This document shows positions 7,878 through 35,697 of a DNA stretch of 40,988 nucleotides, piece after piece. A program made the position numbers and the translations under genes. Numbering within the stretch: position 1 is the first letter of the stretch; each line of letters begins with the position of its first letter. The DNA comes from a virus, in UHGV virus genome UHGV-0160030; one strand, 5' to 3'. The notes beneath the pieces were generated by a model. It was not told where the DNA came from and did no database searches. It saw nothing but the letters and a program-made list of their open reading frames with translations.

Positions 7878-9095
7878 TTATTTGCCAGTGAGCGCCTTGA
7901 TGGCTGCCACATCTTCCAGCACACAGTCAAAACGATGGAAAGCCAGAAATGCCACCTGATCAAACTCAGCATAACGCTCAACCAGACGTTTCAGTTCCAT
8001 ATAAGTAACGCGGCGAATGATAAAGCGGTTGAAATCCCCCAGGAAAATGAATTTTTTTCCGGTACCAATCCCGTCAATAGCCTGATCAATAACATAAGGG
8101 ATCCCCAGCACAGTAGCCGGCGTACCGCCTGCAATATCCGGCAGCCATAACGGGCGTTTCTGCCCATCCTCCATCTCTTCAATAGTCTGCAATGTGGCAT
8201 CATTGAATGCCCAGCGGTATTTCGGCCCACCACGATATGCCGGATCAATGGCATGTTTCAGGGCATTCATTTCTTTCCAGGTGAAAGCGGCAGAGGCTGC
8301 AGTCTGGATGGTTCCCGTCACCGACGCTGCCAGCCCTTTTGGCTGTAACGGTGATCCCGTTCCGGTCCCCTGAACCAGATATTTTGCCTCTCCACGACCA
8401 ATACGCTGGGCAATACGGTTTGCCAGATAAGATTCAATATCCACCCCACTGTCCTGGAGCAGCTCATTGGACACACGAATTATTTTTGATGACAGCTTTT
8501 TAGCCCCCAGAATAGCGGTCCCGAACGTCACATCCTGTTCCGTTGCGGCTGTATTTTCCGCCAGCAGTTCGCCCTCTTCAGTCGTGCCATCAGACGTTGA
8601 CCAGGTGATATCCTGCCCGGTTGATGTGGTCAGAAGTTGCGCCACACTGGCAATCCCGCCATAAGCCTTCATGGTGTCAATGATTTTGTTACGCATCTGC
8701 GTGGGCACCGTATATCCGCCCTGAGAATCCGTTGTTACACTCTGAGCCCGCAGTTCACGCATCAGATTACGCTCTTCAGCATTCAGTTCTGCAAATCCGG
8801 CACGCAGAAAACGGTTAAATGCCGCAGCGCGCTTCTCTTCCACCGCCTTTTTCCCGTTCTCCGCCTCATTATTCTGGCGCTCTTCCGGCCCGGACTCATC
8901 CACATATGCCTGATCCTGACGGCGCAACTCTTCTTCACGGGCGATTTGCTCATCCAGCGCATCCAGCTCAGCTTTCGCCCTGTTCCACTCTGCCCGTTGC
9001 TCATCAGTCCATGCGTTATCACCAATTTTTTCATGCAGTGCACGCATATCCTTTGCAATGGTGTTTCGTTTTTGCTTCATCTCATGAAGTTTCAT
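7878..9095 (-). CDS. Major capsid protein, HK97 fold, with N-terminal coiled-coil delta/scaffold domain
   Basis: 405 aa; N-terminal coiled coil (EQRAEWNRAKAELDALDEQIAREEELRR); synteny protease-portal upstream. Confidence 0.85.
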   Translation of the reverse strand: MKLHEMKQKRNTIAKDMRALHEKIGDNAWTDEQRAEWNRAKAELDALDEQIAREEELRRQDQAYVDESGPEERQNNEAENGKKAVEEKRAAAFNRFLRAGFAELNAEERNLMRELRAQSVTTDSQGGYTVPTQMRNKIIDTMKAYGGIASVAQLLTTSTGQDITWSTSDGTTEEGELLAENTAATEQDVTFGTAILGAKKLSSKIIRVSNELLQDSGVDIESYLANRIAQRIGRGEAKYLVQGTGTGSPLQPKGLAASVTGTIQTAASAAFTWKEMNALKHAIDPAYRGGPKYRWAFNDATLQTIEEMEDGQKRPLWLPDIAGGTPATVLGIPYVIDQAIDGIGTGKKFIFLGDFNRFIIRRVTYMELKRLVERYAEFDQVAFLAFHRFDCVLEDVAAIKALTGK

Positions 9096-16550: not shown

Positions 16551-16990
16551 AGCCTCACCTCCGCAGCGAACGGATGGCGTAGTTATAAGGGGAGCGAAAA
16601 AGAAAGAATGCGCGATTGCGCAATATGGTAACGTCAGGGTATTATCCACTGGCTGAATAGATCACTTCACGTTTTTTGTTCCTTGCCGCCCGTATCCATA
16701 TGCGGGCTTTTTTTTGCATGTAAAAAGGCCCCAACACATGTGCGTGGGGCCTGAGAGTATACATGGTTTCAGTCAACTGCATGGTGCCGGGTGCCTCCCG
16801 GTGAATTCAGTACCAGCACCTGAATCCGCGATTATCCCATATACCTACTCGCTGATTGCCCCTCCGCACAGGGGGATTCACCATGCCAGTTTCTTTTAAC
16901 AAACTCCCCGCAAAACAGACAACTGTCAACCGTCTGAATTGTGAGACATTTAAAAAAAGGCCCGCAAAAGCGAGCCGGGAAAAATAAGTC

Positions 16991-17067
16991 TGGCGCGTTG
17001 TACTGGATTCGAACCAGTGACCGATTGCTTAGAAGGCAATTGCTCTGTCCGGTTGAGCTAACAACGC
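16991..17067 (-). tRNA. tRNA-Arg (anticodon UCU)
   Basis: Hand-folded cloverleaf: acceptor GCGTTGT/ACAACGC, anticodon loop CUUCUAA, T-loop TTCGAAT, CCA encoded. Confidence 0.8.
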
Positions 17068-17080
17068 AGGGTACAGATAA

Positions 17081-17157
17081 TGGACCGCCATCGAGGACTC
17101 GAACCCCGCGCAACCAGCTTCGAAGGCTGGCGCTCTATCCTGATGAGCTAATGGCGG
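17081..17157 (-). tRNA. tRNA-Arg (anticodon UCG)
   Basis: Hand-folded: anticodon stem CCAGC/GCTGG, loop CUUCGAA, T-loop TTCGAGT, 3' CCA; exact 5' end uncertain by 1 nt. Confidence 0.7.
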
Positions 17158-17164
17158 TATGTGA

Positions 17165-17240
17165 TGGTGGCCCTTGCTGGATTTGAACCAGCGACCTGGC
17201 GATTATGAGTCGCTCGCTCTCACCACTGAGCTAAAGGGCC
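17165..17240 (-). tRNA. tRNA with anticodon CAU (Ile2 lysidine-type or Met), resembles E. coli ileX
   Basis: GGCCCTTTAGCTCAGTGGT...CTCATAA...GGTTCAAATCC...CCACCA. Confidence 0.75.
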
Positions 17241-17710: not shown

Positions 17711-18091
17711 TTACTTTTTTAGCAGCCAGTCGTCCATCTCCAGTCTTACCCCCAGCACAGACAAACATCCGTCAATAAACCCTTCGGCTATCTGCATCTC
17801 AATTCGTATTGCTTTTTCGCTTTTCTTTCTCGTCCTGGCTATCTGTCTTTTTGATATTCGCAACAAATAATGAGCAATGAGAAGCGAATACTCCTCAGGT
17901 TTTTTCTGCTTCAGACGAGCAAGACAGTTTTCAATGATAAGTCCGTCATCATCGCAGCAGGCCGGACGTGGTTTAGTGGCAGATGGTAAAAGTCCTTTGA
18001 ATCCGGCAGCGATCGGAGAATAGTCCACCCCGGTGTTACCACTTGCAGCCCATGCCCCCCAGCGTTCAAGAACCATCTGAATATCACGCAT
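17711..18091 (-). CDS. Q: Late gene antiterminator Q (phage 21 / 933W-type Q family)
   Basis: MRDIQMVLERWGAWAA...CCDDD...RLEMD matches recalled Q21-type proteins; ATG at 18106 is an alternative upstream start. Confidence 0.8.
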   Translation of the reverse strand: MRDIQMVLERWGAWAASGNTGVDYSPIAAGFKGLLPSATKPRPACCDDDGLIIENCLARLKQKKPEEYSLLIAHYLLRISKRQIARTRKKSEKAIRIEMQIAEGFIDGCLSVLGVRLEMDDWLLKK

Positions 18092-18108
18092 CAACTTTCT
18101 CCACAAAA

Positions 18109-23220: not shown

Positions 23221-23411
23221 GGACGCACCTCCACCGTAGTTACGTATTTAACCGGGCTACCTTTCATTGAGATGGTTTCACACATCTCTGCCGCTTTCAG
23301 TTCCGCTGTTTTTCTGGATTTATAGCGACGGTGCCAGACAGATACATCCGTGCGAACTGATACATCGTTTCTGTATTCCGTAGTGGAGATGATGATTTCG
23401 TAACTAATCAT
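23217..23411 (-). CDS. Hypothetical protein (64 aa)
   Basis: ORF with coupled overlaps. Confidence 0.45.
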   Translation of the reverse strand: MISYEIIISTTEYRNDVSVRTDVSVWHRRYKSRKTAELKAAEMCETISMKGSPVKYVTTVEVRP

Positions 23412-23959
23412 GGGCGAACCTCCTTGTCAGAACCATTCAGCCTGGAATCAACAAGTGCAGCGCCAAAAACAGCATCACCAACACGGTCGTACAGTTTGCT
23501 AGCCAGCGGAGATTCAACGGCCTTAAGCATTGGATAAAGCTGGCTTGTCCAGATTTGATGGATTTCACGCAAATGCAGGTATACGCCTCTGGCGTTTCGT
23601 GCGACAGCTGACATATCAGACGCATCGGCACCTGATAAACTCTTCTCCATCAGGTTAAAGGCGTTGATGTATGCCTCTTTGAACCGGGCAGCACGTTTAC
23701 CAGTGAAGCCCATGGCAAGGAACGCGAAGCCATCGCGGGTGATTTGATAGCAAGGTAGTTTGCGGCCTGATGCGTCGGTGTATTCACTTAACACAAAATT
23801 GTGTTCAGTAAATTCAGCGGAACATTCGAGGTTTCTAATTCTATCTAAAACCCGCTCATGCCGTTTAGTAAAGTAATTAGCTACTGCAAGAGATGTGGTG
23901 ACAACGCGACCATTGATAATCGTGATTTCAGGGTGAGATTGGGTTGGGAGAGTAGTCAT
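23408..23959 (-). CDS. Phage regulatory protein Rha family
   Basis: ITIINGRVVTTSLAVANYFTKRHERVLDRIRNL...ITRDGFAFLAMGFTGKRAARFKEAYINAFN typical Rha signature; start moved to ATG 23959 (MTTLPTQ...). Confidence 0.7.
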   Translation of the reverse strand: MTTLPTQSHPEITIINGRVVTTSLAVANYFTKRHERVLDRIRNLECSAEFTEHNFVLSEYTDASGRKLPCYQITRDGFAFLAMGFTGKRAARFKEAYINAFNLMEKSLSGADASDMSAVARNARGVYLHLREIHQIWTSQLYPMLKAVESPLASKLYDRVGDAVFGAALVDSRLNGSDKEVRP

Positions 23960-24129
23960 GGTGACAGCCCCTATGTTGAATTCAATGAACTCACCACCAA
24001 GGCTTTCCACGACCATATAGGTGGTGAGACGTACAGGGGTGGAAATACCGGTCAACATAGAACCCGGCCCAACCGAAGTTGGCCCTGCACGCCCCACCAT
24101 AATTTGGGCGTAACGATGCTCATGACACG

Positions 24130-24150
24130 AAAAAACCGCATGAGCGCGGT
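24130..24150 (-). terminator. tR1-like intrinsic terminator in the early rightward operon
   Basis: plus strand aaaaaaccgcatgagcgcggt; minus transcript ACCGC-gcucau-GCGGU followed by U6. Confidence 0.55.
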
Positions 24151-24370
24151 TGTGCTCTATATTGAATTTCGGGTTTCCACGCCCGGCACCCGCTTTATAA
24201 GGTGCCTGAGCAGTGTAACGTCCCGGAATTGCAGAATCAATATTTGGTCTTGAAATGATCATATAGCTGCTGATATCTTTAGAACTGTTCTTGGATGTTT
24301 CGGAGCCGTTTTATGCGAAACAGCTCCCCGTTATTGATGTTGAGTGAGCCGGGTTACTCCCGGCTTTTTT

Positions 24371-25078
24371 TCATCGCTGCCAACCAATAACCTGAAATAA
24401 CCCCATTTTCGGGTGATACCAGCGAGTCCCTCGCGGTTCTGCTTCCTCCATAACCCGATAAAAAGCAGCCATAAACGGTTCCACAGCAACAATTGCGCGA
24501 CGTGACAACAATCCGTCCGGCGTCATGAACTCATGGGTGTCTGTAGGAATCTGATAGGCGTTCACCAGATTGCGGCATTTATCATCTGACAAACCGGTTT
24601 TTGCTTTCAGTTGGCGATATCCGGCATAGCCCTCACGAATAGTGCCCTTTTTAATTTGCTCGACTGTTTCAGCAACGTGGCTGACTTTTTCTTCCACCTG
24701 AGTGATCCGTTTCTGTTGGCGAACGGCTTCAAGAGCCATCGCGGCAACCATTTCGATTTCGCTCATTGGCTTACGGATCTGTTCTTCCAGTTCGCGCCAG
24801 CGATCTACCAGGCGAGCAGTGAATTCAGGGCAGAGCTGTGCGACGACAATGATGCTGTCGCGCTTACCTTGTTCTCCTTCAAACAGGTAATGCTCATATT
24901 GAACTTTAAAACCTAAGTTATTGATTTTCTCGGAAACAGCCATTGGCGGTTTCCGGATGATGTTTTTAGCAACCAGGCGTTCGATACTACGTTTAACATC
25001 TGAGTGCTGACTACCCACCAGCTCTGCGATCTCAACGCTGGTCATGGATGCTTTGTCGTTAAAAATTGCGGTGTTCAT
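24371..25078 (-). CDS. Antirepressor-like regulatory protein (Rha/AntA-type N-terminal domain)
   Basis: 235 aa; N-terminal MTSVEIAELVGSQHSDVKRSIERL; ATGA overlap with the upstream small ORF. Confidence 0.6.
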   Translation of the reverse strand: MNTAIFNDKASMTSVEIAELVGSQHSDVKRSIERLVAKNIIRKPPMAVSEKINNLGFKVQYEHYLFEGEQGKRDSIIVVAQLCPEFTARLVDRWRELEEQIRKPMSEIEMVAAMALEAVRQQKRITQVEEKVSHVAETVEQIKKGTIREGYAGYRQLKAKTGLSDDKCRNLVNAYQIPTDTHEFMTPDGLLSRRAIVAVEPFMAAFYRVMEEAEPRGTRWYHPKMGLFQVIGWQR

Positions 25079-25302
25079 TGTTGGTCTCCTGTGGGCTTGT
25101 CATCTTCTGTATTCGCTAGACTTGGGTGTGTATATGGAATGCTCGTATCCAGATGACAAAGAATGGCAACATCCTCCGGAACACCTCGCGTTTTCCACTT
25201 TCCAACACCTTGACTGCCACGAGGCCTTCCTTTCTTTGGGAACCTGCGACCAATAGCGGCATTGGTTTTAAATTGAATTTTTAATATTTCATAAAGGGTC
25301 AT
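25075..25302 (-). CDS. Small basic protein in the cro position, divergent from cI
   Basis: 75 aa; starts 111 bp from the cI start on the opposite strand; translationally coupled (ATGA) to next gene; weak RBS; no clear HTH. Confidence 0.35.
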   Translation of the reverse strand: MTLYEILKIQFKTNAAIGRRFPKKGRPRGSQGVGKWKTRGVPEDVAILCHLDTSIPYTHPSLANTEDDKPTGDQQ

Positions 25303-26173: not shown

Positions 26174-26590
26174 ATGATCAATAAAGCTACAACTCTTGAC
26201 TGTCTCGAAGAACTGAAAAACCTCGGCAGCCTCATTACACTAATAGCAAAAGCAACACCTGATGCTACGCTCTCTAGCGATATAGAGTCATGCGCAGGGC
26301 TGGCATGGGATATGACAAATAGCATATCCAGAAAGCTATCGTCAGCAATGCTTTTACAGAATAAAAATTCTGCAATCAACAACCGTCTTCGCACCCAACG
26401 CGAAGCCTGCGGCTTAACAACCGCCGAACTCGCCAGGCTGCTCGATCTCGATGAAGAAATTATCATCCAGTGGGAGAGCGGAGAGTATGAACCAACTATC
26501 AGTATGCTTATCCCACTGGCAAATATTCTTGGCTGCGATCCGATGTGGCTGTTAACTGGTAAACCAACAGGTGGGGATACTTGCGCATGA
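26174..26590 (+). CDS. XRE-family HTH protein with N-terminal extension, first gene of leftward operon
   Basis: 138 aa; C-terminal HTH LTTAELARLLDLDEEIIIQWESGEYEP. Confidence 0.6.
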   Translation: MINKATTLDCLEELKNLGSLITLIAKATPDATLSSDIESCAGLAWDMTNSISRKLSSAMLLQNKNSAINNRLRTQREACGLTTAELARLLDLDEEIIIQWESGEYEPTISMLIPLANILGCDPMWLLTGKPTGGDTCA

Positions 26591-26829
26591 AAAACTGTGA
26601 TGCTTACCATATTTGTCTCATTGGTGAATTGCTTGATTTCATACAAAAAAGCACTGCGCGCAATAATAAAAATATAACATATGGTGATCTGGTAATAATT
26701 TCAGAGGATATAAAGAGCATCGCTCTTAAATTCAAGAGCGACGCGAGTATTGATGACGCTATTTACGCTTATCTTGCGAAAATAATTGACGGATCCAAAA
26801 TCCAGCCTCTGGATGAACCTCGTCAGTGA
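26581..26829 (+). CDS. Hypothetical protein (82 aa)
   Basis: ORF overlapping previous gene 3' end; 3' end overlaps a convergent minus-strand gene. Confidence 0.4.
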   Translation: MRMKNCDAYHICLIGELLDFIQKSTARNNKNITYGDLVIISEDIKSIALKFKSDASIDDAIYAYLAKIIDGSKIQPLDEPRQ

Positions 26830-27726: not shown

Positions 27727-28086
27727 ATGACACATGAACCCATTAATACATATCGTCGCCGTATAGCTGTTGCAGCACTCCATCGAATAAAACGTAAAAC
27801 AGGTGGTGATCTGCTTATTGTTGACCTTCTGGATGGGAACATTACGACCATAGAAATAACAGAACAGTTTATAAACCAGTTGCTGTTGCGCTTTGAAGAT
27901 ATTACCCGTGGTGAATTGGGTCGAGTGGAGGGTGAAACAGAATTCCGAACTGCATACCAGAATGCCATCGGGATTAATCAACATACTGAATACCAGGCTG
28001 AAACCGGAAAGTTAATTATAGACAACCTTTTACAAGAGGTTATTGATTACGCGAAAGAAAAATATATCAGCGGAGGAATTAACTGA
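27727..28086 (+). CDS. Hypothetical protein (119 aa)
   Basis: ORF, coupled ATGA overlap with next gene. Confidence 0.55.
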   Translation: MTHEPINTYRRRIAVAALHRIKRKTGGDLLIVDLLDGNITTIEITEQFINQLLLRFEDITRGELGRVEGETEFRTAYQNAIGINQHTEYQAETGKLIIDNLLQEVIDYAKEKYISGGIN

Positions 28087-28301
28087 TGGCTAATTTATCC
28101 CCTGTATCTGTTGTGCACGAAAAAGTGCAGATCGTTATGACAATTGAAAATGGCCAGGTAACAGATGTCTGCAAAGTCCGCGATGGAGAGCTGATTGCCA
28201 GCATGGATACATTCATATGGCTGGCAGAAAGAGCGGGGTATCAGATAACAGCACCTGCTCAGGAGGAAACCAGTGACATTAACAGCAACGCGAATTCCTG
28301 A
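28086..28301 (+). CDS. Hypothetical protein (71 aa)
   Basis: ORF, ATGA overlap with previous gene. Confidence 0.5.
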   Translation: MANLSPVSVVHEKVQIVMTIENGQVTDVCKVRDGELIASMDTFIWLAERAGYQITAPAQEETSDINSNANS

Positions 28302-28491
28302 GTGGGTCCACCAGCAGGCGTTGCTGGTCCTGCGGCGGTACAGATGCCGACGTATATTCCCGCATCGGATACAGCGCAACGGATATCTCAGTCTGAAGGT
28401 TAACCGTCGCTGGCGGCTGTTATCGAAAGACGACGGCCGGAACTGGGAAATAATGAGTCATGAACGTTATTCGGGAGAAATAAAGAAATGA
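28273..28491 (+). CDS. Hypothetical arginine-rich small protein (72 aa)
   Basis: GTG start 6 nt after AGGAGG; Arg-rich LLVLRRYRCRRIFPHRIQRNG...RRWRLL. Confidence 0.5.
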   Translation: MTLTATRIPEWVHQQALLVLRRYRCRRIFPHRIQRNGYLSLKVNRRWRLLSKDDGRNWEIMSHERYSGEIKK

Positions 28492-33637: not shown

Positions 33638-35697
33638 TCCACAACCTCCCCAAGCTGCGCATCTGTTAGCTCTTTATGCCAGAGACGAAAATTCCTCACA
33701 TGCCCAAATAAATGGCGTAATCCTGCTGTAGTTTGTCCACCAATGCGAATGGTTGCTGTACTCCGGATATATTCCCATTTGGTTTTAGTTTCGCTGCTTA
33801 ACTTACCGTTACTGACTACACATGTGGACCGTTCGGACTTTACCCGCATACCAATAAGCATTTTTTCCAGCCCGGCATTTTCATTTATTCGTCGGTCTGA
33901 ACCACCTATATCGCAATACGGAAAACCGTCGTACCCACCTGATGAACCAAACCCCATTACGATCCCCGCATCTGCCTGATGCCGGTATGTGTCAAAAACA
34001 CGCGGTGCTGCATTTGGCGTTTTATACCAGTTCTTATGTACCTCACAAAGAACCGTAAAAGGAAGATTATAAAGATTATTCTTAATCGGAACTGTAACCA
34101 TATCGCTTGCCCGCGTTACCGGTGCCGTCCCCGTAACAATAAAAGATGATGCGCCTGTACCAGCCTCAATCTGTGGAGTGGTTACATCGAGATAATCCCC
34201 TGATGCAACCATCTGCCCTGTATCCGGAGAATACTGGACAAAACCACCAACCGTATTTTCTGTTGTATCTGCTTTTAATGTAGCCTCAAAAAATATCCAG
34301 CCAGTTGCATCATCCTTAACAGACCTTGCTGTAACACGGCTTGTCTGACCTGTCTTGCTAATTATGCGGGTGGTAAGGTTCAGGTTTGCTGCTCCTATTG
34401 ATGTCCTTACCTCCCCATCATAATGTTCAAATAAAATACGAACGGCGATATTATCAACTTCACTTTTTACCCGACAGGATATAGTTACATGCTTTTCGTC
34501 CCCTGAAGTATCAACCCCTCCGGTACTCGAATACAGTCCGATAATGGTATGCGCTTTACTTGTACCAACAATCGAATCCTGTACGACAAACCGGCCATAA
34601 TTAAACCCGAAACTATCTGTGCCTGTTTCTGTAACGTCCAGTGAAGTTGACTTATTCCACTTCGAAGGGTCTGTACTGTTCTGGAAGAAGTTCGTTCTTT
34701 GTCCCTCAATAAGCAGGCCATCACACTCAAATCGCGGCTCATTAATTTCCGCCGTTTTCAGTTCGCCAGATTTGTTGATATATGTTGCCGTTGATGCGCG
34801 ACTGAAATTAATCTGTTTATCACTGGCAACCTGAACCACATTATCGCCAATCTTCACTTTTTTATAACCCGGAGAATAGCCCGTAATCATATCCAGCGAA
34901 TCATTAAAGGGTATCCACACATCCGGCAGCGGCTGTAAAACATATCTGTACGGCTCTGCTGTCTGGTTTGCGTATTCTCTGGCAGCATCTTCACTTGCTT
35001 TTGCTGCCGTCTGGCTTGCTGCCGATGCTTTCGCCGAGTTCGCCGCCGCTGTTTCGCTCACCTTTGCGTTGGCTTCACTGTCTTTGGCATTCGTCTCACT
35101 GGTTTTCGCTGCCGTCTGGCTGGATTTTGCGTTTTTTTCGCTGGCCTTTGTGGCTGTCTCGCTATTTTTCGCGCTGGTTTCTGATTTTTTGGCTGCTGTC
35201 GCGGAGTTTGCCGATGCAGTCTGCGAGGCCGCTGCCGCCTGTGCGCTGTTAGCTGCATTCGTTTCTGAGGTTTTCGCCGCATTCTTCGATGAGGCTGCTG
35301 CCGTTTCGGATTTCTTTGCCGCCGCTGCACTCTGTGATGACGCTCCGGCATGACGTGCCACTTCATTCACCATCAGCTCAAAACGGCGCAGTGCCTCCGG
35401 ACGGGCATCATCCTCCGTCATGGCACCGAGAAAATCATTCAGCGTACCTGGTCTGGAACCTTCATAGACGGTAATGGTCCCGGCATGTGAAGGTGGAAAA
35501 CCTTCAACCAGCAGGGTGACGCTGTACTGGCCATACTCAACATCCATGCTGTAACGCCCGGCTTCATCCGGATTTTCAGAGGCCACCGTGTTCACCACCA
35601 CCGTGCTGCTGGTCCGTCTGGCCTTCAGCACAATGGTGCAGTTCTGTACTGGTTTTCCTGTGCCATCTTTAAGCACGCCAGAAATTTTTACTGTCAT
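33634..35697 (-). CDS. stf: Side tail fibre protein
   Basis: N-terminus MTVKISGVLKDGTGKPVQNCTI... matches recalled lambda Stf; Ala/Ser/Thr-rich repeats; divergent C-terminal domain. Confidence 0.85.
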   Translation of the reverse strand: MTVKISGVLKDGTGKPVQNCTIVLKARRTSSTVVVNTVASENPDEAGRYSMDVEYGQYSVTLLVEGFPPSHAGTITVYEGSRPGTLNDFLGAMTEDDARPEALRRFELMVNEVARHAGASSQSAAAAKKSETAAASSKNAAKTSETNAANSAQAAAASQTASANSATAAKKSETSAKNSETATKASEKNAKSSQTAAKTSETNAKDSEANAKVSETAAANSAKASAASQTAAKASEDAAREYANQTAEPYRYVLQPLPDVWIPFNDSLDMITGYSPGYKKVKIGDNVVQVASDKQINFSRASTATYINKSGELKTAEINEPRFECDGLLIEGQRTNFFQNSTDPSKWNKSTSLDVTETGTDSFGFNYGRFVVQDSIVGTSKAHTIIGLYSSTGGVDTSGDEKHVTISCRVKSEVDNIAVRILFEHYDGEVRTSIGAANLNLTTRIISKTGQTSRVTARSVKDDATGWIFFEATLKADTTENTVGGFVQYSPDTGQMVASGDYLDVTTPQIEAGTGASSFIVTGTAPVTRASDMVTVPIKNNLYNLPFTVLCEVHKNWYKTPNAAPRVFDTYRHQADAGIVMGFGSSGGYDGFPYCDIGGSDRRINENAGLEKMLIGMRVKSERSTCVVSNGKLSSETKTKWEYIRSTATIRIGGQTTAGLRHLFGHVRNFRLWHKELTDAQLGEVVE

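Follow-up and report, generated by a model that had tools for sequence, protein, structure and literature searches.

What lies between two neighbouring early genes of a lambdoid prophage when the DNA that separates them carries a terminator and no obvious gene? The window considered here is the whole stretch of 40,988 nucleotides (nt) of the viral genome UHGV-0160030, a phiP27/Eru-type lambdoid E. coli prophage with a CI/Cro switch. All coordinates are those of the window, and the early operon is on the minus strand. The gap in question (23960..24370) is bounded by the stop codon of a Roi/Rha-like gene (25078..24371) and by the ATG of a Rha-family gene at 23959. A preliminary description had taken it for apparently non-coding DNA resembling a tR1-type regulatory leader, and had left RNA-based antitermination as one option. 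The present analysis indicates that the gap is very probably an RNA immunity/gating module of the P4/P1/Gifsy-1 type, placed in the pR-like early operon of the prophage.

At least 13 complete E. coli genomes contain the 411-bp stretch with 100% identity, and lower-identity matches are present in 1,206 of 5,426 genomes; E. coli copies number roughly 1,450. One strain with an identical prophage is E. coli NMBU_W05E18. The phage records closest to the window are PhiR49_2, phiP27 and several Stx2a phages.

Two RNA families in the gap

The gap contains two Rfam matches in tandem. The first, isrK (RF01394, 24205..24129), reaches 61.6 bits against a gathering score of 50 and has a terminator inside it. 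The second, C4 (RF01695, 24104..24017), starts 25 nt downstream of IsrK and reaches 82.4 bits against a gathering score of 45 (E=7.6e-15). The features of the module and of the gene that follows it are:

24235..24240, minus strand: -35 hexamer TTGATT of a putative internal promoter (PisrK, counterpart of P4 PLE), read from the sequence
24212..24217, minus strand: -10 hexamer TACACT of the same putative promoter, identical in Stx2a_EH2201 and PhiR49_2
24129..24205, minus strand: IsrK / P4 seqA-like leader RNA (Rfam RF01394, full length, 1-77)
24181..24174, minus strand: box a1, in the loop of IsrK hairpin 2, CGUGGAAA
24165..24155, minus strand: box b1, in IsrK, UCAAUAUAGAG
24151..24134, minus strand: intrinsic terminator, stem AACCGC/GCGGTT followed by U6 (terminator scan; 3' hairpin of the isrK match)
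24017..24104, minus strand: C4 / P4 CI-type antisense RNA (Rfam RF01695, model positions 1-87 of 87)
24063..24052, minus strand: loop L2 of the second C4 hairpin, antisense element, GUUCUAUGUUGA
24046..24039, minus strand: junction J after the second C4 hairpin, antisense element, AUUUCCAC
23960..24016, minus strand: target leader of 57 nt downstream of C4, with boxes a2 and b2
24011..24004, minus strand: box a2, CGUGGAAA
23979..23969, minus strand: box b2, UCAACAUAGGG, overlapping the Shine-Dalgarno sequence
23972..23968, minus strand: Shine-Dalgarno AGGGG of the Rha-family gene, 8 nt before ATG 23959
23408..23959, minus strand: predicted regulated gene, short form, a Rha-family (Bro-network) regulator or putative antirepressor of 183 amino acids (Pfam Phage_pRha, 105.8 bits)
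23408..24262, minus strand: long nested open reading frame (ORF) of 284 amino acids, counterpart of P4 eta (RefSeq WP_001551256.1, called by PGAP)

The IsrK-like RNA consists, in this order, of hairpin 1, hairpin 2 with box a1 in its loop, box b1 and the intrinsic terminator, which is co-oriented with early transcription. Its predicted fold agrees with the family structure. The c4-a1b1 family also overlaps IsrK, below its threshold (23.6 versus 46.7). The putative promoter has an ideal geometry, with a 17-nt spacer and then 6 nt from the -10 hexamer to G24205, which is position 1 of the isrK model. At the corresponding position, 33 of 57 C4 loci have a TTGNNN-N16-18-TANNNT pattern, compared with 2 of 273 control windows. 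A strict detector finds a hairpin with a T-run upstream of C4 in 26 of 58 loci and in 16 of 273 controls; the former count is a lower bound, since by eye most loci have such a structure.

Many Stx2a/Stx2d phages are homologous to the window from the roi-like gene up to about 24165-24182 but no further, which places a mosaic joint inside the IsrK RNA. Everything downstream of the joint, from the IsrK box region on, differs from those phages.

The C4 RNA has a 17-bp outer stem that encloses a UUCG hairpin and a second hairpin. Its minimum-free-energy fold is the family consensus (-44.5 kcal/mol, z=-5.2), and hairpin 1 shows covariation in 14-20 of 32 sequences, with none broken. The outer stem is taken from the Rfam model and the single-sequence fold, given that RNAalifold on a MAFFT alignment returned the inner hairpins only, because the variable length of the junction misaligns the 3' strand of the stem. 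The two antisense elements of C4 find complementary boxes on both of its sides. Between L2 and the b2 region there are 11 contiguous pairs, and between L2 and the b1 region 12 (G-U pairs allowed); J forms 7 pairs with the a1 region and 7 with the a2 region. No further perfect target of L2 or J was found in the whole window.

The sole long ORF through the gap (24262..23408, minus strand) is in frame with the Rha ATG at 23959, and its own ATG at 24262 lies 22 nt upstream of the -35 hexamer. Pfam places the Phage_ASH domain (PF10554) on residues 16-112 (profile positions 1-106 of 107), and the corresponding reading frame is here termed the Ash frame. The short form begins with the Kil/Icd-like N-terminus MTTLPTQSHPE, which resembles that of P4 Kil (MATTLTPSHPEF). 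In the E. coli locus L001 (5449..6303) PGAP names the 284-residue ORF 'Rha family phage regulatory protein', and the RNAs are unannotated there.

Co-evolution of the antisense elements and their boxes

A scan of viral contigs with a C4 core pattern gave 78 unique loci with a good outer stem, which represent 58 distinct L2/J specificities. In nearly all of the 78 loci the target of L2 falls on the Shine-Dalgarno sequence, 5-9 nt before the ATG. Across the 58 specificities the complementarity of L2 and of J to both flanks is higher for cognate than for non-cognate combinations (Mann-Whitney p 6e-20 to 6e-31), and for 46 of the 58 the best or joint-best partner of a C4 is its own pair of flanks. 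The cognate duplex energy was likewise the best in 5 of 5 rows; the upstream duplex energies of P4 are meaningless, as the 100-nt span used missed seqA.

The closest relatives illustrate the same behaviour at higher resolution. The window, Stx2a_EH2201 and PhiR49_2 are identical in DNA sequence from the end of roi up to and including IsrK hairpin 1, with the promoter in this shared part. Beyond it, the six boxes and loops all differ among the three and are matched within each phage. In both Stx2a_EH2201 and PhiR49_2 the isrK and C4 matches exceed the Rfam thresholds. As the boxes have been rewritten in matched sets, the three phages are predicted to be heteroimmune at this switch. The C4 elements and their boxes thus co-evolve across many specificities.

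Proposed mode of action

By analogy with the related systems, the putative internal promoter (-35 at 24240, -10 at 24217, start at about 24205) would produce the IsrK RNA. Transcripts that read through the IsrK terminator would yield C4, presumably excised as a stable RNA. C4 would pair with boxes a2 and b2 and block translation from ATG 23959 of the Rha-family antirepressor-like gene; masking this ribosome-binding site is presumably the chief function of the module. Via polarity, this block may also limit transcription into the replication genes and Q. The decoy copies of the boxes in IsrK would enable it to titrate C4 or remodel the leader, in line with the activation of anrP by IsrK in Gifsy-1. 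Every set of specificities would represent a second, RNA-based immunity of the prophage.

A more speculative step concerns the transcripts from pR. The AUG at 24262 is present on these transcripts only, because it lies upstream of the putative start of the internal transcript. Ribosomes that initiate there might translate through the terminator and C4 in the Ash frame, which would keep both structures from forming, so that the lytic transcript passes without N, as in P4 eta. The Ash frame is kept open as in P4 eta, and translation of the early transcripts may therefore override the terminator. It is a possible, though rather doubtful, extension of the scheme that in N-less phiP27/Eru-type prophages the module stands in for tR1/N, as a heteroimmune antisense gate that ribosomes on the Ash ORF, instead of a protein antiterminator, override. 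Pfam Phage_ASH would then be an RNA module in an open frame rather than a protein domain.

Several points weigh against this scheme. The promoter, the processing, the repression and the polarity are all drawn from homology, and the two experimental models are opposite in sign, with C4 as a repressor in one and IsrK as an activator in the other. The putative PisrK reaches just 8/12 of the consensus, too little for a generic promoter scan to report it. The start codon at 24262 lacks a clear Shine-Dalgarno sequence, and at 108 nt past the roi-like stop codon it is too distant for the translational coupling seen in P4 eta. Neither Gifsy-1 nor the non-enteric loci have the long ORF, and L188, a locus otherwise of the enteric type, is also without it, so translation through the module is not general to C4 modules. 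Moreover, open frames in related sequences are non-independent observations.

A less likely alternative: an activator without a repressor

Of the other explanations, the one that survives best takes the module as a pure activator of the Gifsy-1 type. The readthrough transcript would adopt a silent fold that is opened by the short IsrK in trans, and C4 would not be a trans-acting repressor. Translation would then start at AUG 24099 in the 5' stem of C4, the counterpart of the Gifsy-1 orf45 start, and give an N-terminally extended Rha protein. Gifsy-1 genetics favours this explanation (PMC4825925). The AUG of orf45 is the AUGGUGG of the C4 stem, and the corresponding AUG of the window is in the Rha frame. 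The full readthrough RNA also folds stably (z=-4.7), with the a2/b2 leader in a hairpin of its own. Against these points stands the co-variation of the C4 loops with the Shine-Dalgarno boxes over 58 specificities, as a trans-acting antisense repressor predicts. P1 and P4 provide precedents for such a C4-type repressor. In addition, the 17-bp stem buries AUG 24099, which lacks a Shine-Dalgarno sequence. Activation by IsrK and repression by C4 are compatible, given that IsrK as an anti-antisense RNA fits both, and an activator acting without a C4 repressor is considered unlikely.

The nature of the Ash domain

A further explanation is that the gap is simply coding: the 284-residue ORF would be a genuine two-domain Ash-Rha protein and the RNA matches would be incidental. 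The Phage_ASH match of 38.4 bits exceeds the cutoff of 26, PHROGs 821 and 995 span the entire ORF, and PGAP calls it. Furthermore, 109 'ash family' homologues are found in enterics, and the frame is open in relatives. Of the 50 specificities whose downstream ATG is usable, 28 (the enteric type) have this frame free of stops across the module, and in these 28 the other two frames usually hold several stops. Among the heteroimmune relatives the start codon and the frame are unchanged, the only insertions or deletions being two 3-nt gaps.

The codon positions oppose this explanation. Over 28 loci the positional entropy of the Ash frame is 0.89/0.94/0.88, and in three groups it is 0.58/0.61/0.57, 0.23/0.35/0.29 and 0.28/0.33/0.23, with no third-position excess in any of them. 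The directly downstream genes of the same loci do have this excess (0.40/0.45/0.87, 0.28/0.26/0.59 and 0.28/0.27/0.50). AlphaFold2, applied to the whole long ORF, gives residues 1-106 a predicted local distance difference test (pLDDT) score of 26-38 and no secondary structure, despite an input alignment that is deeper over the Ash part than over Rha; the Rha domain scores 82-92.

The conserved residues follow the RNA elements. The near-invariant APYKAGAG corresponds to the 3' arm of IsrK hairpin 1 plus CCGGG, AVF to the terminator and its T-run, IMVGRAG to the 5' stem of C4 and PV(R/W) to its 3' stem, whereas the specificity boxes account for the variable residues. An in-frame TGA closes the frame in Gifsy-1, and in about half of all C4 loci it is closed as well. 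Finally, the Shine-Dalgarno sequence and ATG 23959 are located exactly where all other C4 modules have them.

With no codon signature, predicted disorder, conservation that lies on RNA elements and a frame that is closed elsewhere, Ash (the first ~101 codons) is the IsrK/C4 RNA module read in one frame by the gene caller. As a folded domain it is largely refuted, and a coding gap is very unlikely. This agrees with the preliminary description, which had seen no protein-like gene in the gap, had judged the long ORF across the terminator to be non-protein-like, and had placed the terminator itself correctly within early-operon DNA. That description had also held that a conserved gene found there by profile search would overturn it. 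Phage_ASH is formally such a gene, and the objection falls with the recognition that this 'domain' is an RNA module in one frame.

No sign of a lambda-type antitermination system

The weakest alternative, a lambda-type tR1 leader whose terminator is overcome at a nut-like site by an unrecognised N-like protein or a put-like RNA, is highly improbable: the terminator is indeed the first one downstream of the cro-like gene and ahead of the replication genes, and other ways past it are themselves inferred, but it is part of a full-length isrK match with a C4 RNA next to it, no N-like protein was found by Pfam and PHROGs among the ORFs heading either operon, and a scan with the boxA consensus gave a single match at chance level (26721), far from the gap, inside an ORF and without a boxB-like hairpin.

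The suggestion of a regulatory RNA leader with a terminator was accordingly sound, while its assignment to the tR1/nut type was not. The impression that neither early operon starts with N was correct, as was the reading of the first leftward gene as a helix-turn-helix protein (HTH_3 by Pfam). RNA-based control, considered at that stage as one option, is supported by the isrK and C4 matches above the Rfam gathering thresholds and by predicted folds that conform to both family structures. On the other hand, the arginine-rich 72-residue ORF (28273..28491), which had been put forward as the only N-like candidate, is a ParE-like toxin (Pfam PF24732, 63.7 bits), and the proposed search for nut-like motifs yielded nothing beyond the isolated boxA. 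The start of the ParE-like ORF is overlapped by a 71-residue ORF (28086..28301, plus strand) without a Pfam match, which could be the antitoxin.

Late antitermination is of the Q type, with the Q gene on the same strand as the early operon:

18106..17711, minus strand: Q antiterminator (176.8 bits)

Just downstream of Q, at 16716..17240 on the minus strand, are an Rfam STnc100 match (140 bits) and three tRNA genes. This layout past Q is the one seen upstream of stx in Stx phages.

Genomic surroundings of the module

Upstream of the module and at its border the following features are found:

25302..25075, minus strand: cro-like ORF of the pR-like early operon
24371..25078, minus strand: Roi/Ant-like gene with a Rha domain, the upstream early-operon gene, annotated Roi in PhiR49_2
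24346..24366, plus strand: GC-rich hairpin followed by U7, just past the roi-like stop codon (terminator scan and fold, z=-4.7)

Past the Rha-family gene, the early operon continues with three small ORFs, then O-like, DnaC-like and DnaB-like genes, DUF968 and the Q antiterminator.

The hairpin at 24346..24366 is terminator-like for plus-strand (antisense) transcription only; on the minus-strand early transcript it is a hairpin without a U-run. On the plus strand, two hairpins come after a promoter-like site (TTGAAA-18-TATCTT, extended TG, 24250..24279), and the hairpin at 24346..24366 with its U7 is the second of them. Site and terminator together would yield a ~90-nt RNA that is antisense to the DNA separating the roi-like gene from the long ORF. 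This putative RNA (24250..24375 region) folds well (z=-4.1) and matches no Rfam family above threshold. The plus-strand matches at 24244..24375 (sroD, PrrF, SorX, SorY and ncS16) are far below threshold and were set aside as terminator-driven noise. In 9 phage records the identity of this segment is 98% or higher, which makes its conservation uninformative.

The first gene of the leftward operon (26174..26829 region, plus strand) encodes 138 amino acids in the window and 167 in the otherwise matching E. coli locus L001. Its product matches positions 1-135 of PHROG 4739, a profile of 167 positions, and an ORF of 82 residues follows it with a 10-nt overlap at its end. The copy in the window may be frameshifted or truncated.

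The record of PhiR49_2 (PV340570.1) is 40,988 bp long, the same as the window, with 88-94% identity over the compared regions and with different coordinates. The equal length may be a coincidence, or the two may be related isolates.

Implications

The module explains an 'intergenic' stretch although public records place a coding sequence over it, namely the RefSeq protein of 284 residues named as 'Rha family'. The consequence extends to other annotations, 'ash family protein' being a widespread product name. An Ash 'domain' of unknown function has been noted in the Rha proteins of Stx phages (PMC8951638), and this 'domain' is the IsrK/C4 RNA module.

Placed past the CI/Cro switch and ahead of both the replication genes and Q, the module is a plausible extra control of induction. 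Since the phage group is related to Stx2a-converting phages, the module plausibly affects toxin expression in relatives. It would also provide an RNA-based immunity between prophages that are otherwise near-identical. If ribosomes do override the terminator, an antisense RNA would gate the passage of early transcripts to the replication genes, to Q and, in relatives, to stx, and the N-less phiP27/Eru-type group includes widespread Stx2a phages. The added value is modest: the Ash annotation is shown to be an RNA module in an open frame, and the replacement of N by translation is offered as a testable idea.

Comparison with known systems

The module involves no new principle, its type being already known from P4, P1 and Gifsy-1.

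The classical precedent is the immI region of P1/P7, composed of the c4 antisense RNA, icd and ant. It contains a C4-family RNA with a'/b' elements, boxes a1/b1 upstream and boxes a2/b2 on the ribosome-binding site of the next gene. The controlled output is an antirepressor-type gene, and heteroimmune specificity variants exist. The window resembles this arrangement (the P1 side being general background) in its C4 RNA, in the boxes on both sides, in the presumed antirepressor-type output and in the specificity variants. Unlike P1, the window has no separate icd ORF, and the ribosome-binding site that C4 would mask belongs directly to the Rha-family gene.

Gifsy-1 carries isrK (79.3 bits) and C4 (69 bits) in tandem ahead of its antirepressor gene anrP, as the window does ahead of its antirepressor-like gene, and the IsrK terminator is leaky there and presumably also in the window. 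Transcription of anrP is driven by the isrK promoter of Gifsy-1, and some transcripts read through the IsrK terminator (PMC4825925). IsrK in trans lifts the translation of anrP more than 100-fold, a processed RNA, STnc1160, is located downstream of IsrK, and the route from IsrK to antirepressor translation and prophage induction was experimentally shown (PMC4825925). Hfq binding and the trans-activation of the downstream gene by isrK are known for Gifsy-1 only (PMC4825925). The 'orf45' of Gifsy-1 is one reading frame of the full-length C4 match (34131..34214, 69 bits); its first AUG (+107) coincides with the AUGGUGG in the 5' outer stem of C4, and its stop codon overlaps the anrP ATG. The two modules differ in their site, downstream of Q in Gifsy-1 and between cro/roi and the replication genes in the window. 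They also differ in the Ash-frame ORF, which has 45 codons in Gifsy-1, with a TGA upstream and a TGA overlapping the anrP ATG, and 101 open codons fused to Rha in the window.

Lambda tR1 and the module share the position of a terminator early in the rightward operon that gates the replication and Q genes. In contrast to the lambda nutR/N system, no N or nut was found in the window, and its terminator belongs to a small-RNA gene. The gate would consist of an antisense RNA plus, possibly, translation.

The P4 system is a satellite's version of the module, whereas the window is a 41-kb lambdoid prophage with a CI/Cro switch. In P4 the CI and seqA RNAs lie inside the gene eta, which also has an internal constitutive promoter, and a truncated form, Kil, is translated on readthrough (PMC10111431). 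Full-length Eta is translated only from the upstream late promoter, and the translation of eta prevents termination (PMC10111431). The RefSeq record of P4 (NC_001609) has a coding sequence, 'cI gene product (AA 1-137), transcriptional repressor' (8168..8584), over the CI RNA, and the RNAs are unannotated.

The tandem Rfam pair is represented in P4 by seqA and its terminator (isrK) and by the CI immunity RNA (C4). These two elements are 25 nt apart in the window and ~108 nt apart in P4, and the nested gene runs on into the Rha domain in the window, whereas in P4 it is the 65-residue Kil. The long ORF of the window is uncoupled from the gene that precedes it, unlike that of P4. In other C4 groups the long ORF begins a few nt past the stop codon of the upstream gene, as in P4. 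The nested eta/kil arrangement, a long ORF over the putative internal promoter and both RNAs and in frame with a short ORF, is nevertheless found in the window. Both systems have the order isrK to C4, a promoter (putative in the window) that lies inside a long ORF, a little past its start codon, a short nested ORF with a Kil-like N-terminus past the CI/C4 RNA, and antisense loops that are complementary to boxes on both sides.

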